Shown: positions 1 through 7,299 of the stretch, in pieces
How the letters are laid out: each line of letters begins with the position of its first letter
How positions within the stretch are numbered: position 1 is the stretch's first letter
Source of the DNA: Candidatus Vampirococcus lugosii
GTDB lineage: Bacteria > Patescibacteriota > Gracilibacteria > Absconditabacterales > Absconditicoccaceae
Direction of reading: 5' to 3'
Length of the DNA: 7,299 bases
NCBI RefSeq assembly: GCF_018420025.1
Contig: NZ_JAEDAM010000047.1
Coordinates: 1-7,299 of the forward strand
Made by a program: the position numbers and the translations under genes
Notes under the pieces: model-generated
Told to the model about the DNA's origin: nothing
The model's input: only the letters and a program-made list of their open reading frames with translations
Database searches by the model: none

Positions 1-72
1 CCTGTAATTCATCTTCAATTGAATCTTCCTGTAATTCATCTTCAATTGAATCTTCTTGTAATTCATCTTCAA
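1..72. repeat. 27-bp tandem repeat with two identical copies plus one partial diverged copy; the array is truncated by the window edge.
   Basis: Positions 1..27 and 28..54 are identical (cctgtaattcatcttcaattgaatctt). Positions 55..72 repeat the first 18 nt with one c>t change. One unit is exactly 9 codons and encodes EDSIEDELQ on the minus strand. Confidence 0.9.
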
Positions 73-127
73 AAACATAATCATCTACTGAATTGCTTTT
101 TAAATCTGTTAATTTAATATTATTCAT
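1..127 (-). CDS. 5' end of a CDS that runs off the left edge. It encodes an acidic protein with 9-aa tandem repeats; function unknown.
   Basis: The ATG is the reverse complement of 125..127, and an in-frame TAA lies just upstream (143..145). The translation MNNIKLTDLKSNSVDDYVFEDELQEDSIEDELQEDSIEDELQ... stays open to position 2. The frame differs from that of the other four genes. No family was recognised. Confidence 0.6.
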   Translation of the reverse strand, partial: MNNIKLTDLKSNSVDDYVFEDELQEDSIEDELQEDSIEDELQ

Positions 128-152
128 ATTTTTTATTTTTATTTATAATCTA

Positions 153-174
153 AAAACAATTTTTTAATTGTTTT
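153..174 (-). promoter_or_regulatory. Inverted repeat aaaacaatt-tttt-aattgtttt between the DUF368 stop and the next start codon. It could be a weak intrinsic terminator, a leader hairpin or an operator.
   Basis: The arms are 9 bp (153..161 and 166..174) with a 4-nt spacer. On the minus strand the hairpin is followed by a 5-T run. It starts 1 nt after the candidate -10 hexamer. The stem has only one G:C pair, so it is weak. Confidence 0.3.
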
Positions 175-175
175 A

Positions 176-203
176 ATTTTATTATTTTTTTTAAATTTGT
201 CAA
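176..203 (-). promoter_or_regulatory. Candidate sigma70-like promoter for the leftmost (partial) gene.
   Basis: On the minus strand there is an exact TTGACA (revcomp of 198..203), a 16-nt spacer, and TAAAAT (revcomp of 176..181), about 50 nt upstream of the ATG at 127. -10-like hexamers are abundant in DNA this AT-rich, so the exact -35 is the main support. Confidence 0.35.
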
Positions 204-225
204 TTTTTTTATATAATATAAATAT

Positions 226-1071
226 TTATTGTTGACTTTTTTTGTTTTTAATGTTTAATAAAATTTTTGGGAAATAAAATGAAATTGAAAATCAAATTAT
301 AAATATAATAATAAGAATTATATATACATATATATTATATATATTTTTAAATGGAATTAAAGTAAAAGATGAAGCTAAAACCATAGCTATTATAATATAA
401 TAAAAATGAGATGCAAAAGATGAATTTAAAATATAATATATAACACGAGCTGATAATATAATTCATATTATAGCTCAAAATCATATTATAAATAACTTAT
501 CAAAAACAAAATCTTTTACAAAAGAAAGTATATTTTCATATTCACCCAAAATAAGCAACATCATAGATCATGAAAATCAAGGTATTATCATGGAAGCGGC
601 TGCAACAAATCAAGAAAAAAAAAGTTTTATATTGTAAATAATTCAATTTGTATCACTATTTGAATATAAATCTCAACTTCAAAAATAAAATAATAAAAGA
701 ACAGAAAATAATCAAATTAAAAAAACTAATATTTTTGAAATTGATAATTTATTATTTGGAATATTTTTATATAAATAAGGAATAGATCATAATATAATTC
801 ATATTATAAAAATATTTGTATAGATTTCATAAGAATCTATAAGTGCAGAAAATATATAAGAGAATATAAATATTCAAATTAATGCTCAAATTCAAATAAT
901 TGATAAGAAAAGAAAATATTTTTTTCTATTTTTAGAATCTGTAATAATATTTGAAATAGATTTTGTTAATTCTTTATATATTCAAAGAATTACCGCCATT
1001 GTTCATCAAGACAATCATGGAATTATATTAGCAATTCAAATAAGCATTCATTTTAATAAATTCAAAAACAT
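226..1071 (-). CDS. DUF368-family polytopic membrane protein, PopT-like, a candidate for undecaprenyl-phosphate translocation/recycling; 281 aa under table 25.
   Basis: The frame is open from ATG (1069..1071) to TAA (226..228) with about 22 in-frame TGAs and no TAA or TAG. The N-terminus reads [35 protein letters not shown]. A second half-repeat signature reads AAASMIIPGFSGSMMLLILGE. The protein is hydrophobic throughout (e.g. IIGIGALIGIFIFSYIFSAL, LIGLFSVLLLFYF). The paired PGxSGG/PGxSGS motifs are the hallmark of DUF368. Confidence 0.85.
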
Positions 1072-1092
1072 TAAATTATATTTAAATATAAA

Positions 1093-2172
1093 TTATTTAT
1101 TATTTTTCATAAGATATAATGCACTTCATAATAAATTTTTATCATTTTTATCAACTGTAACGGAAGTATGTGGGTAAGGTATTCTTATATTATTTTCCAA
1201 AATAGCTTTATAAATATAATGATTTATTTTTCATAATATTACTGGAGGTCAATCCAAAACAACATTAGGATCTATATGGAAACTTGCTCTAATTTCTACT
1301 CAATTTGAAGTATTATTAGTAAAATCACGATCTCATCAACTATCTCAAATTTTACTTATCAAAGCTTTAGTTAATTTTTTATTAGTAACTAGTCAAGAAT
1401 TATTTACTGCATCTATTATAACATCACAAGCTTTTTGAATATCTTCTTCATAATGTATCAAAACAAAAGTTCGTAATATAATACTATCTTCAGAAGTATA
1501 AGTTTTTAATGGATTTGTAATCATATCTAAATTAGGAATTATAACTCTTCTTTTGTCATATATAAGTCTTAATACCGTATATCTAATAGTTATTTCATCA
1601 ATTATACCAAAATATGATTGATTATTTGGTTTTTCTAATTCAACTTTATCTCAAAGTTTAATTTCTTTTGTAAGTAAAAGCATAACTCAAGCAAACATAT
1701 TACCCAATATTTCTCTAAAAGCAAATCATATACCAACAGAAAGTCATCATAACAAAATTCATATATCAAAACCAATTATTTGAAATCAAATAAAAATTGA
1801 AATCAACAATAATGGATAGAAAATCATACTAGAAACTAAATTTCAAGCTCTCTGAGAATAAACATCAACATCATCATCTTCTCAAGCATTTTCATTATCT
1901 GGAATATTAATATTATTAATAAATCTATTTCTAATATAAACTGCGATTATTTTTGAAATAAACATTAAAACTGCAGTTACTAATATTGCAATAATAGCTT
2001 GTATAGCAATAGTAAAAATATTGCTATCAAAAATAGAACTAGAATTAGTATTTACGGTAATTGCTTCTTCAGTTCATTCTCATTGAGCATAAGTTTTAAC
2101 TAAAAATAAGACATTTATCAAAATTATTAAAAATAATTTTATATTTTTAGTATTTAATAAATTTAATTTCAT
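1093..2172 (-). CDS. mscS: MscS-family small-conductance mechanosensitive channel; 359 aa under table 25.
   Basis: The gene runs from ATG 2170..2172 to TAA 1093..1095 with about 19 in-frame TGAs. The core GLSVGIGFAFREILGNMFAGVMLLLTKEIKLGDKVELEKPNNQSYFGIIDEITIRYTVLRLIYDKRRVIIPNLDMITNPLKTY matches the MscS pore helix and beta-domain pattern (G.G.AFA...L.N...G..LL......GD.V......G.I..I..R.T.L......R.IIPN). The N-terminus MKLNLLNTKNIKLFLIILINVLFLVKTYAQG looks like a signal peptide or first TM helix. The C-terminal IRIPYPH motif is typical of the family. Confidence 0.85.
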
Positions 2173-2193
2173 TTTAATATTTATTTTTTTAAA

Positions 2194-5100
2194 TTAAAAG
2201 TTAAATCATCCTAAATTAGGATTTTGGTTTCTATTTCTTTTGTAATCAAGATTATTTGGATCTTCATCTACTTTTTTCTTAGCAGAAACAACATTTTCTT
2301 GTTTAAATATTACATAAAGAACAGATTCTAATTTATCATTACTAATATTTGATATATTATTTGCTATATATGAAGATAATAATTCAAGTCATTGTCTCAT
2401 TTGTGAAGGCATACTTCTATTAATCCCAGTACCAAAACAGTTTTCAAACATAGACATAATTTCTTTTTTTGTTTCTGATTTAGATTTTCAATCACTTTTG
2501 GAGTGTAAAATACTTTGTAAAATATCAGAATATGTATTTGAATGAACATTTACAAACCAAGTAGAATAAACTCACATTATATATTCAAATTTATTTATAT
2601 TTACATCAAATTCATATTTTTTTAGAGTTCAATTAAATATATTCCAAAGTCCACGTCACAAAGGATTATTAAAATCTCTTCAATTATGAGATTTCATACT
2701 AGAATCAGCAAGTTTAGGTCAAATATGTAAAATAGATTTCATATATGGAATAGCTTCATTTGGTTTTAATTTTGAATCATATGGAATATCTTTTCATTTT
2801 TTCAAAACTATATCTTTATATTCTCATAATATTTCTTTAATTTCTTTTTGTTCTTTATTTAGATTTTGTAAATTTTCTAATTTTTTTAATTCAGCAAAAG
2901 CTCAATTATCTAAATCAGAATTTGATAAAAATGAAGATATTTTTGATCAATTAGAAGCCCACCAATAAAGAAATTTACTTTGAATTTTTTCTTTTTTATC
3001 AGCTCCAGAATCAGGAGATATTGTATTCATAGACCAAGATGTAAAACTTGAGAATTCATTAGATCATTTACTAATATAATCAAATAATTTTACTATTTTT
3101 TCAGGACCTTTGTAAGTATTAACAAAAAAACCTACAGGAAAAGAATATGTTCAAGCTATTTTCATATATTCTGTTTTAAGTGTTTCATCCCAATTTAAAT
3201 ATTCTCAAGATATAATAGGTAAAAGCATCATTCAATACCACTTTTGATAATGTCATTCATGATCAACTTTTTCAGAAAGAGCTCTTAATGTTCAAATTTG
3301 TCTAGCTGGCATAGCTCATTTCATAATTCAATTTAAATCATTATAAACCATTTCAAAATTAGATTTACTTGACATATTATTATGCATTTCATCAACTTTA
3401 GACGAACTAAAATTCGTTGATATAGCTCAATCCAAAGCTCATTGAAATTTGGAACCAAAAATTTTTCTCATTTTTTCAGAACCTACTGTATCTTTTATAT
3501 AATCTAATTCAAGTCTTGCTAATTCATTTTGAAGTGTTTCGTTGTCTCAAGTTTTTTTTAATTGTGATATTAGAAAACTTTTATTATTTTGATAAACTTT
3601 TAAATATTCAGGTCACAATATTGCATTAACCCAAGCTCAAGATCATGAATATTTTTTTAATCATCTATAATATGGACCTCATCATTTTTCCAAAGAATGA
3701 AGAAGATATCCAGCAGCTTTTAATTTATCTTTTGAAGATCATTTTTTTTCAAAAACTTCATTTTTTATTACATTAACAATTTCTTTATCATGAACTGCAC
3801 CATCACGAGATAATCTATCTTTATGTTTATTTATTATTGACCAAAGTTTACTATCATATTCAGAGAATGCCTCTTGTCTCAATTCAGAAACAATAGAACC
3901 TGGAATTACAGATGCTATTTTACTATCCAAAAGTGACATATAAAATTGTGATGCCCTAAGTTCATCTTCACTTTTCCATCTTTCCAAATAATTATCTTTT
4001 ATAGATTTAAATGATATTAACATAGCTGAAATTGATAATCCATTACTTTTCATTTTTTTATCAGGATTAGCATTAATTTTATTTTTTAACATTTCGGCAT
4101 CTTCTTTTGTATATGGATTAAGTCATTTTTCTGAACAAAAAATAGAAAATGCATTATAAGACATTTTTTTTTCTTTTGGTGATAGATTTTCATTTCCCAA
4201 AATTATTCAATCTGGCAAATATTTTATATAATATAATAATGGTATTTTTTTTGAATTTCAAGATTCATTATATTCATCATATTCCATTCAAACATAATCA
4301 ATTTGATTATTGTCAGAATCAAAAAATTTTCATCATTTTTCTTTTAAATTCAACCATTTTTCTTTAAAATTTTTGAATCATTTGTAATCTTCCAAGTTTA
4401 TATTTTTTATATATTTCAAAAATTCATCAGAACTATCTATAGTTTTGAATTTCATAGAAACTCAACTTACTGGTTCTTTATTCAAAAAATTAGAAAATTG
4501 TTCATAATTTATTTCTATTTTTTTTGAAAAATATTCATTAGTTTCTCAACAATAAAAATTAGCTTCAATTTTTACTTTTCAATTGTATAAAATTTTAGGT
4601 TCACTTGTTATTTCCATAAATCACCATTGAGATCATCATCATGGATAAATTGATTCTCAAACTCTAAAAGCTAGACTAGATCAAATATTAAATTCTGCAT
4701 CTTTATCTCATTTTATTTTTTTCCAATCATTATTTATTAAAGATAAAGTTTCATTTCAATCCATATTTTCATTAAATTGTAAATCTTCATCAAAAGATTT
4801 TACACTTTCATCTATTGATAATCAATTTGTAAGTAAACCAGATAAATTAAGATATAATAAATCTCATATTTTTTCATTACTAATTTGTAAATTATCATCA
4901 ATAATTCATAAATTTTTAAGTAAATTTAAAACTTCATTATCTCATTGTGTTTGAGAAATTTTTAAATTTAAATTAATTTGCATATTTTCATCTATAAAAA
5001 TTTTTTTTTCATCAAATACTAATTTAGTATATTTATTTCACAAATATAAATTTAATTCTTTTTGATTTGGATTCAATAAATTTGTAATAAATTCTTTATG

Positions 5101-6159
5101 ATTATTTATCATAGATTTTGGTAAAGAAAAATAATTTTCTAATTTGGAAGAAAAAGATGAAGAAAAAAGAATTTCAACAAATTCTTCAAAATCTATTTTT
5201 TTATTATCAATACTAGAAAAGTTATTCAATAAAAATTTCTTTTTTGAATTATCTATTTCAGATTCATCCAAAAGTAAAATATTAGCAATAATATAATTTA
5301 AATCCAAATCTTTTTGATCAAGAGTATCAGAAAACTTATCATCAATATTAAATCATTTTTGATTAAGTTTATCTTTTTGAGATTCAATATATTGTTTATC
5401 TATATTTTTTACTTTATTAAAAAGTTCTTCTCACAAATATTCTTTAATAAAATTTTTTGTATCAAAAATATTAGATAAACCAGAAAAATAATTTTCCATA
5501 TCATCCGTATATTTAATTACCTCACTTTTGCAAGAAGATTTAATGAATCAAGATTGTATATCTTCATTATTATCCAAATTAGTAATAAAATCATTATCTA
5601 AATTAGAAACAAGATCAGATATAGATATAGATTGTTTAGAAATAAAGTTTTTTTGTTCTTCCAAAAGATTATCGGAAATTATTAATTCAGTATTAAAAAA
5701 AACTTGTAATCAATCTATATCTTGGACTTGTCAAATATTTTCAATATAATAATTTAATTCATTTTCTTCTAATCATAATATATAAATTTTTTCTATAAGT
5801 TTATTCTTAATAGTTTGCAAAAATCAATTATGTAAACTATTTTTATATTTTATATAAAAATCTGATGATAAAAAATCATTTGATAAAACATAATCAAATG
5901 TCATTCACATATTACTAAAATCATCTAATATTAAATTTTTATTTCAAGATTTATTTATAATTTGTTTGTAATTATTTATTATATCTTGATCTGAAATATT
6001 GTTTGAACTTATAAAGTTTTTGAAACTATCATAATTTGTAATTTGTGAATTACTATTTTTGTATAATAAAGATATTAATAATTGAGTTTGAATATTAGAA
6101 ATTAATTTATTTCTATTATTTTTTTGTAAAGAATCTAAATTTTTTTGATCTAATTCCAT
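2194..6159 (-). CDS. Giant orphan protein of 1,321 aa under table 25; function unknown and no recognisable domain.
   Basis: A single frame is open from ATG (6157..6159, preceded by an in-frame TAA at 6169..6171) to TAA (2194..2196). It has no TAA or TAG in 1,321 codons of ~25% GC DNA and about 62 in-frame TGAs. It joins the track fragments 5944..6159, 5038..5307 and 3739..4092, which all lie in the same frame. The N-terminus is MELDQKNLDSLQKNNRNKLISNIQ... and the C-terminus is ...DYKRNRNQNPNLGGFNF. I saw no Walker A motif, no HExxH, no N-terminal signal peptide and no obvious TM helix. Confidence 0.85.
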
Positions 6160-6197
6160 TTTATAATTTTATATTTTATATATTAAAATTACTATTA

Positions 6198-6225
6198 ATA
6201 ATAAATAATTATTATTTAATGTCAA
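6198..6225 (-). promoter_or_regulatory. Candidate sigma70-like promoter in the 84-nt tatD/giant-ORF spacer.
   Basis: On the minus strand there is an exact TTGACA (revcomp of 6220..6225), a 16-nt spacer, and TATTAT (revcomp of 6198..6203), about 40 nt upstream of the ATG at 6159. It sits in the only sizeable intergenic gap inside the array. Confidence 0.35.
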
Positions 6226-6243
6226 TTTAAAAATTATTTTATA

Positions 6244-7044
6244 TTATCAATATAATGCAAAAAAATTATCTTCTATAATATCTATATAATTATCTAAATC
6301 ATAATCAATTAAGTTTGCTGTATATTCATAAATATATTTAATATAAGATGAATCATTTATTTTTCATCTATATGGATGTGGTGTTAGATATGGAGCATCA
6401 GTTTCTATTAAAATATTTTGTTTTTCTGTTGCCAAAAAAGATTCTCTAATGTTTTCTGCTTTTGGAAAAGTAATATTTCAAGTATATCATATCCAAATAT
6501 TTTCAAAATTTTCTTGTAATACATTAATTTCATTTGCTCAATATCACCAACAATGAAAATAAATTTTTAATTTTGGAAAATTTTTAATTATATCATATGT
6601 AGACTCAAAATCATCTCTAGAATGAATTATTACTGGTAAATCTAATTTTTGAGCTAATTCGCATTGCATCATAAAAAATTTTTTTTGACTTGATAGAGTT
6701 TCTGATTTACTTGAATAATGAACATCAATACCACATTCACCTATAGCATAAATATATTTTATATTTTTGTTGTAAAATTGTTCCATTTCATTCAAAATAT
6801 TTTCAAATTGATATGGATATATATTTTCATTTGCTACCAAACTTGGATGATATCAAATACTAGAAAATAATTGTAATGATGTATTATTATTTTTTTGTAT
6901 TTCTACAGCTTTTAAAGCCCGATCCATATCTACTGCCACATTCATTAATCATTTTCATCAATTTTCTTCAAATTTTTTTAAAAAATATTCATAGTCTGCA
7001 AATAATTGTTCAGAATTTAAGTGTGTATGAGAATCAAAATACAT
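6244..7044 (-). CDS. tatD: TatD/YabD-family metal-dependent hydrolase (DNase); 266 aa under table 25.
   Basis: The gene runs from ATG 7042..7044 (in-frame TAA at 7051..7053) to TAA 6244..6246 with 10 in-frame TGAs. The sequence reads MYFDSHTHLNSEQ (HxH metal site) ...SSIGYHP...AIGECGIDVHY...LPVIIHSRD...YFHCWGYG...IGYTGNITFPKA...[28 protein letters not shown]. The track ORF 6544..6840 is the internal TGA-free segment. Confidence 0.9.
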
Positions 7045-7250
7045 ATTTTTTTATATTATTAATAAGAATTAAATTATTTAATAAATATTTATTTATAATA
7101 AATATTTGTATAAAGTATTTTATACATATTTAAATAAATAGCAATATATTTTGAATTTTTTTGTAATAGTTTATTTAATTTAGTATTTTATAAAAAATTA
7201 ATTAATGTAAAAAGACTTGAATATATATTTATTTTCTTTATATATTTCAA

Positions 7251-7272
7251 AACTCAATTAATTAATTGAGTT
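7251..7272. other. Perfect 22-bp palindrome aactcaattaattaattgagtt. It could be the terminator of an upstream minus-strand gene or a dimeric-regulator operator.
   Basis: The 22-mer equals its own reverse complement. On the minus strand the stem runs into TTTT-G-AAA. A minus-strand frame is open from the right edge (...IKYTLNMIYNSIN) and stops at TAA 7258..7260, inside the palindrome. This fits a gene end with a terminator, but only 13 codons are visible. Confidence 0.4.
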
Positions 7273-7299
7273 ATATATCATATTTAGTGTATATTTAAT

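Follow-up and report, generated by a model that had tools for sequence, protein, structure and literature searches.

What does the codon TGA mean in the genes of Candidatus Vampirococcus lugosii? The question is raised by contig NZ_JAEDAM010000047.1 of assembly GCF_018420025.1, a stretch of 7,299 nucleotides that we analyzed at its full length and refer to here as the window. Under translation table 11, the longest open reading frame (ORF) in the window is only 117 amino acids. A reader given the sequence alone proposed that TGA is a sense codon here and specifies glycine, as in translation table 25 (the original prediction). Our comparisons of sequences lead to the same answer: Candidatus V. 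lugosii, a predatory bacterium of the Absconditabacteria (SR1) in the Candidate Phyla Radiation, almost certainly reads UGA as glycine (table 25), with UGG specifying tryptophan and UAA (with UAG) terminating translation.

Four genes, encoding a TatD hydrolase, a 1321-residue orphan protein, an MscS-type channel, and a DUF368/PopT-like transporter, share one minus-strand frame (Table 1). This frame, in which the low coordinate of each codon is 1 mod 3, contains 114 TGA, 18 TAA, and 1 TAG codon. The four genes account for 113 of the TGA codons (10 + 62 + 19 + 22, in the order given above), or ~5% of their codons; the TAA and TAG codons are either intergenic or the terminal TAA of the genes at 6244, 2194, 1093, and 226. 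All four complete genes terminate with TAA, and inside them there are zero TAA or TAG codons. When only TAA and TAG are treated as stops, the result is a set of frames of 269 (7050..6244), 1325 (6168..2194), 367 (2193..1093), and 289 codons (1092..226); the remaining five frames, in which TAA and TAG make up 3-9% of codons, hold nothing longer than 162 codons. The G+C content of the window is 20.2%, and from its base composition TAA and TAG would be expected at ~8.5% of codons, so that finding none over ~2227 codons has a probability of ~1e-86. The original prediction was accurate at this level: the sharing of one frame by the ORF fragments and the absence of TAA and TAG from the gene spans were confirmed in all coordinates and counts, the hand count of about 110 in-frame TGA codons became 113 on computation, and the sites that it singled out (three in TatD, one in MscS, and three and two in two DUF368 motifs at 1000..1020 and 565..582) are all TGA. 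The HCW, NIW, and LYWW sites at which it saw TGG still in use are likewise present among the 15 TGG codons of the genes.

The short ORFs obtained with table 11 look like decay, and UGA might still be a stop codon in a region of pseudogene fragments or of genes expressed by occasional read-through. We consider the probability of this to be very small, as it would require 113 TGA codons to have accumulated in 2227 codons at 20% G+C without a single TAA or TAG. In addition, the Pfam alignments cross the TGA codons end to end in TatD (1-253 of 253 profile positions) and DUF368 (1-237 of 246). The missing TAA and TAG codons and the full-length profile matches together led us to rule out the stop codon and pseudogene interpretation.

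The residue read at TGA

One line of evidence for glycine comes from the DUF368 protein. A hidden Markov model (HMM) was built from 119 homologues, none with more than 46% identity, and the window protein was aligned to it with X at each TGA, which makes the test independent of any code-25 annotation. The homologues have a median of 0.4% tryptophan (and of 10% glycine), and therefore none of them is a mistranslated relative. Glycine was the top emission in 19 of the 22 TGA columns, with an emission of 0.6-0.8 in ten of these, and the emission of tryptophan was at most 0.007 in every TGA column. The summed log2-likelihood for TGA was -33.9 for glycine and -87.4 for alanine, the next best residue (a margin of 53 bits). 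When the same procedure was applied to other codons as a control, ATT, AAA, TTA, and TCA correctly gave Ile, Lys, Leu, and Ser, and TTT was miscalled as Leu, not Phe. We attribute the miscall to A+T-driven amino acid drift (enrichment of Phe) in a membrane protein, not to recoding, and it is the reason why we trust only large margins in this test.

Structures of TatD and MscS homologues, aligned with X at the TGA positions, gave the same picture. Three TGA codons in TatD and one in MscS coincide with glycines of known motifs (Table 1), and the TGA at residue 163 of MscS likewise falls on a glycine of the solved MscK, MscS, and MscM chains. TGG codons were found at aromatic positions, such as the HCW that lies opposite HCF, HSF, and HAF. 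Structure alignments and HMM columns thus agree with the proposal that TGA marks family-invariant glycines in TatD, MscS, and DUF368. The tabulation of DUF368 columns that the original prediction had put forward as a check favored glycine and not tryptophan, and its view that tryptophan is implausible at TGA is borne out in every one of these columns.

Profile scores separate the translations in all three families with Pfam matches. With TGA as glycine, the scores were 195.4 bits for TatD_DNase, 145.2 bits for VCA0040-like/DUF368, and 37.5 bits for MS_channel_2nd; with TGA as tryptophan, they fell to 168.4, 77.2, and 29.4 bits, respectively. Table 25 therefore outperformed table 4 in TatD, DUF368, and MscS alike in the comparison suggested with the prediction. 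We also joined the three proteins into a chimera and scored it against Pfam with TGA translated as each of ten residues (A, C, E, G, K, L, N, R, S, and W). Glycine came out on top in every family (TatD, 191.6 bits; DUF368, 146.1 bits; MscS, 35.6 bits), with serine and alanine as the runners-up. Tryptophan reached 164.5, 74.1, and 28.1 bits, respectively, and was the second worst residue in TatD and DUF368. The readings of TGA as A, C, E, K, L, N, R, or S, each of which scored below glycine, were rejected.

The orphan protein, which has neither a Pfam nor an NCBIfam match, could be approached only through a related contig. Its sole distant homologue among 5.8 billion proteins is P0127 (1540 amino acids; 28% identity over 47% of the query), which is encoded at 293..4915 on the Logan contig L001 (7567 bp; 21.9% G+C). 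A standard-code homologue was sought in the same collection, and only a tryptophan-translated copy of the orphan itself and P0127, which is from another recoded organism, were matched. An MscS-family gene lies directly downstream of the orphan gene in the window and of the P0127 gene on L001, so the order is the same. Codon alignment of these two gene pairs yielded 1487 aligned codons, which included 23 TGA-TGA pairs, 10 TGA-GGN pairs, 8 TGG-TGG pairs, and no TGA-TGG pair. Nine of the 20 aligned GGN codons of the window were opposite TGA in L001 (Fisher P = 6e-8 for GGN versus background); of the 13 TGG codons of the window that aligned, none was. This pairing implies that TGA is a synonym of GGN and belongs to a class apart from TGG; the 23 positions at which TGA is conserved in the relative also speak against a stop codon.

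Tryptophan (table 4) is the reading that automated pipelines chose, as the translations with tryptophan at TGA in Logan (P0001, P0005, and P0006) demonstrate. UGA is tryptophan in the Mycoplasmatales and in several insect endosymbionts of very low G+C content, which the window resembles at 20% G+C, and the frames are full length under table 4 as well. Despite these similarities, we consider this reading highly improbable. Tryptophan is nearly absent from the DUF368 columns, it costs 27, 68, and 8 bits in the TatD, DUF368, and MscS families and ranks near the bottom of the ten residues, and in the comparison with L001 TGG pairs with itself and never with TGA. The four proteins would contain 5.7% Trp and 1.1% Gly under code 4; with code 25 they contain 0.7% Trp and 6.2% Gly, an ordinary composition. 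The DUF368 column test was taken to rule out tryptophan.

Decoding of UGA and the use of rare codons

By analogy with the literature on this clade, the genome would lack release factor 2, the factor that otherwise recognizes UGA, and UGA would be read as glycine by an additional tRNA-Gly that has a UCA anticodon and the identity elements for glycine. In SR1, an additional tRNA-Gly(UCA), and not a wobbling tRNA, serves this role (Kantor et al., PMC3812714). The recoding has been tied to tRNA(UCA)-Gly together with a lack of release factor 2, and those Gracilibacteria that have release factor 2 but no tRNA(UCA)-Gly still use UGA as a stop (PMC8629427). Peptides with glycine at UGA have been detected in BD1-5 (PMC4032931).

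A degenerate tRNA(UCA) pattern with glycine acceptor elements (G1:C72, C2:G71, G3:C70, and U73) was scanned against GTDB genomes and gave at least 120 matches, including at least 67 tRNA(tca) genes of 79 nt that were confirmed by ARAGORN, which labels them tRNA-SeC. Among the matches listed, the genomes with tRNA(tca) genes have low to moderate G+C contents and are mostly labeled Gracilibacteria, Peribacteria, or Patescibacteria. This suggests that many genomes with UGA as glycine are filed under other names, several of them being labeled Candidatus Peribacteria or Patescibacteria group.

Several observations weigh against glycine in V. lugosii. Three of the 22 TGA columns in DUF368 are variable loop positions without a residue preference. 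More than half of the TGA codons (62 of 113) lie in the orphan gene, for which there is no standard-code homologue and the comparison of codons with one relative is the only test. The peptide evidence comes from other members of the clade (BD1-5, PMC4032931), ARAGORN found no tRNA gene in the window, and V. lugosii is not among the tRNA(UCA) matches listed. Searches with Rfam for RNA families in the window and with ARAGORN for tRNAs on L001 were also negative, and the accessible portions of the main text and supplements of the genome paper (PMC8080830) make no mention of release factors or tRNA-Gly.

TGA is the main glycine codon in the window, accounting for 113 of the 137 glycine codons in the four genes (82%), where GGG occurs once and GGC is missing; its share is even higher, 138 of 146 (95%), in three L001 genes (293..6843). 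Strong A+T mutation pressure, reflected in the G+C content of 20%, probably brought this about, as TGA, alone among the glycine codons, contains a single G or C, is the most A+T-rich of them, and can arise from GGA by one G-to-T change. It has similarly been noted that encoding glycine by UGA lowers the G+C content, since the other glycine codons are richer in G+C (Kantor et al., PMC3812714).

CGA and CGG are nearly extinct in the window genes, occurring once each versus 29 occurrences of AGA, as would be expected of codons that are reassigned or unassigned. CGA and CGG have been predicted to encode tryptophan across the Absconditabacteria (Shulgina and Eddy, PMC8629427), which raises a refinement of, not a rival to, glycine at UGA, namely, that the code of V. 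lugosii is not exactly table 25. We regard this refinement as possible but somewhat doubtful. One TGG of the window aligns with a CGG in L001, as tryptophan would predict, but one AGA of the window, encoding Arg, pairs with the single CGA of L001. The single CGG of the window sits in a variable column of TatD, its one CGA and one CGG provide no statistical power, and V. lugosii is not mentioned in PMC8629427. If these codons do specify tryptophan in V. lugosii, Arg stands in place of Trp at such rare positions in its GenBank proteins, which were translated with table 25. It seems unlikely that GGC and GGG are effectively unassigned, or free for tRNA loss or further reassignment, and that CGA and CGG are read as tryptophan as well, in which case table 25 would mistranslate a few sites.

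Gene content of the window

The features of the window are collected in Table 1. The three proteins with Pfam matches exceed the respective gathering thresholds (27 bits for TatD, 20.2 bits for MscS, and 26 bits for DUF368). Their exact functions (TatD versus YcfH, and PopT) were not assigned because the NCBIfam equivalog cutoffs were not reached; for example, the DUF368 protein scored 130 bits against the NCBIfam PopT model, under its cutoff of 400 bits.

Table 1. Genes, TGA sites, and rare arginine codons located in the window
Feature	Position	Strand	Details
TatD-family metal-dependent hydrolase	6244..7044	-	266 aa + TAA; 10 TGA, 2 TGG, 1 CGG; PF01026
1321-aa orphan protein gene	2194..6159	-	62 in-frame TGA, 13 TGG; open for 1325 codons
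MscS-family mechanosensitive channel	1093..2172	-	359 aa + TAA; 19 TGA, 1 CGA; PF00924
DUF368/PopT-like polyprenyl-phosphate transporter	226..1071	-	281 aa + TAA; 22 TGA, single GGN; PF04018
Fifth gene, 5' end, runs off contig	1..127	-	Different frame, without TGA; ATG at 127..125
DUF368 motif P-x-LS-x-x-T, three TGA (aa 19, 22, 23)	1000..1020	-	Gly emission 0.79, 0.65, 0.79; Trp 0.002
Second DUF368 motif P-x-FS-x-S, two TGA (aa 165, 168)	565..582	-	Gly emission 0.79, 0.61; Trp 0.002
TatD aa 64 TGA (SSI-x-YHP)	6853..6855	-	Gly in 1j6o, 2gzx/6l25, 1yix (svGvHP, iiGwHP, scGvHP)
TatD aa 189 TGA (YT-x-NITF; G before xxTF)	6478..6480	-	Gly in four full-length solved TatD homologues and E. coli TatD
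TatD aa 227 TGA (PYR-x-K)	6364..6366	-	Invariant Gly of PfRGK, PyRGK, PhRGK (P-x-R-G-K)
MscS aa 174 TGA (KL-x-DKV)	1651..1653	-	Gly of riGDtv, kvGDwi in MscK, MscS, MscM
Single CGG, TatD aa 42	6919..6921	-	Variable column; D, T, or S in solved homologues
Single CGA, MscS aa 234	1471..1473	-	

The spacers between the four genes (6160..6243, 2173..2193, and 1072..1092) are 84, 21, and 21 nt long, all multiples of three, which puts the genes in phase with one another. The chance of such co-phasing is ~1 in 27, and it is probably a coincidence, since the genes of L001 are not co-phased.

The translation of the fifth gene from its ATG is MNNIKLTDLKSNSVDDYVFEDELQEDSIEDELQEDSIEDELQ, an acidic product. 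A 27-bp tandem repeat at 1..72 (2.7 copies, 97% matches) encodes it and probably broke the assembly at the end of the contig. The sequence AAATTGACA, with a -35-like TTGACA, occurs on the minus strand in both of the longer spacers, upstream of the orphan gene (~6205..6215) and upstream of the fifth gene (~195..205). A perfect 18-bp palindrome, CTCAATTAATTAATTGAG, lies at 7253..7270, upstream of the TatD gene and near the contig end.

Prior descriptions and related codes

The recoding is already known for this organism. The V. lugosii genome paper (Moreira et al. 2021, Nat Commun 12:2454, PMC8080830) states that UGA is recoded to glycine, and the genes were called with Prodigal and translation table 25 (PMC8080830). 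With TGA as glycine, our translations are identical, residue for residue, to the NCBI proteins of V. lugosii for TatD (MBS8122157.1/WP_213349428.1), MscS (MBS8122154.1), and DUF368 (MBS8122153.1). The novelty implied by the original prediction thus does not hold: the recoding has been on record for this genome since 2021, and glycine is what the deposited annotation uses. The prediction was right to place the source in an SR1 or Gracilibacteria lineage, given that V. lugosii is assigned to the phylum Candidatus Absconditibacteriota. The case can also serve as a positive control, in that 7 kb of sequence was enough for a reader without tools to recognize an alternative code.

The warning that an annotation with table 4 or 11 would be wrong is of practical relevance. 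Table 11 shatters every gene of the contig and table 4 puts tryptophan at 113 glycine positions, and wrong-code translations of the window genes do circulate in derived databases. The Logan entries P0001, P0005, P0006, P0126, and P0127 represent genes of the window and its relative with TGA translated as tryptophan. Such translations exist for TatD and DUF368 and, judging by the 95% identity of P0126, for the orphan; no tryptophan-translated MscS was found in the protein collection. In the public protein collection, these tryptophan-laden versions cluster with the correct NCBI proteins at 90% identity.

UGA has been known as a glycine codon in SR1 since 2013, and code 25, the Candidate Division SR1 and Gracilibacteria code, was reportedly described by Campbell et al. 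and by Rinke et al. in that year. The window is like this code in having UGA as glycine in conserved genes, UGG as tryptophan, and UAA as terminator, and code 25 was defined in the Absconditabacteria, the lineage to which V. lugosii belongs. There is no difference in kind; the window is notable in degree, with TGA making up 82% of the glycine codons and GGC and GGG almost absent.

Code 4, in which UGA is tryptophan, is used by the Mycoplasmatales and Entomoplasmatales and by Hodgkinia, Nasuia, Zinderia, and Stammera. It shares with the window a UGA sense codon, a small A+T-rich genome, and the fragmentation of genes under table 11, but the residue in the window is glycine and not tryptophan. 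Under code 4, UGA is read by a changed tRNA-Trp, whereas SR1 has an extra tRNA-Gly(UCA) instead (PMC3812714). The closest comparison is with the published V. lugosii genome (Moreira et al. 2021), which contains this contig with its proteins and from which the window does not differ.

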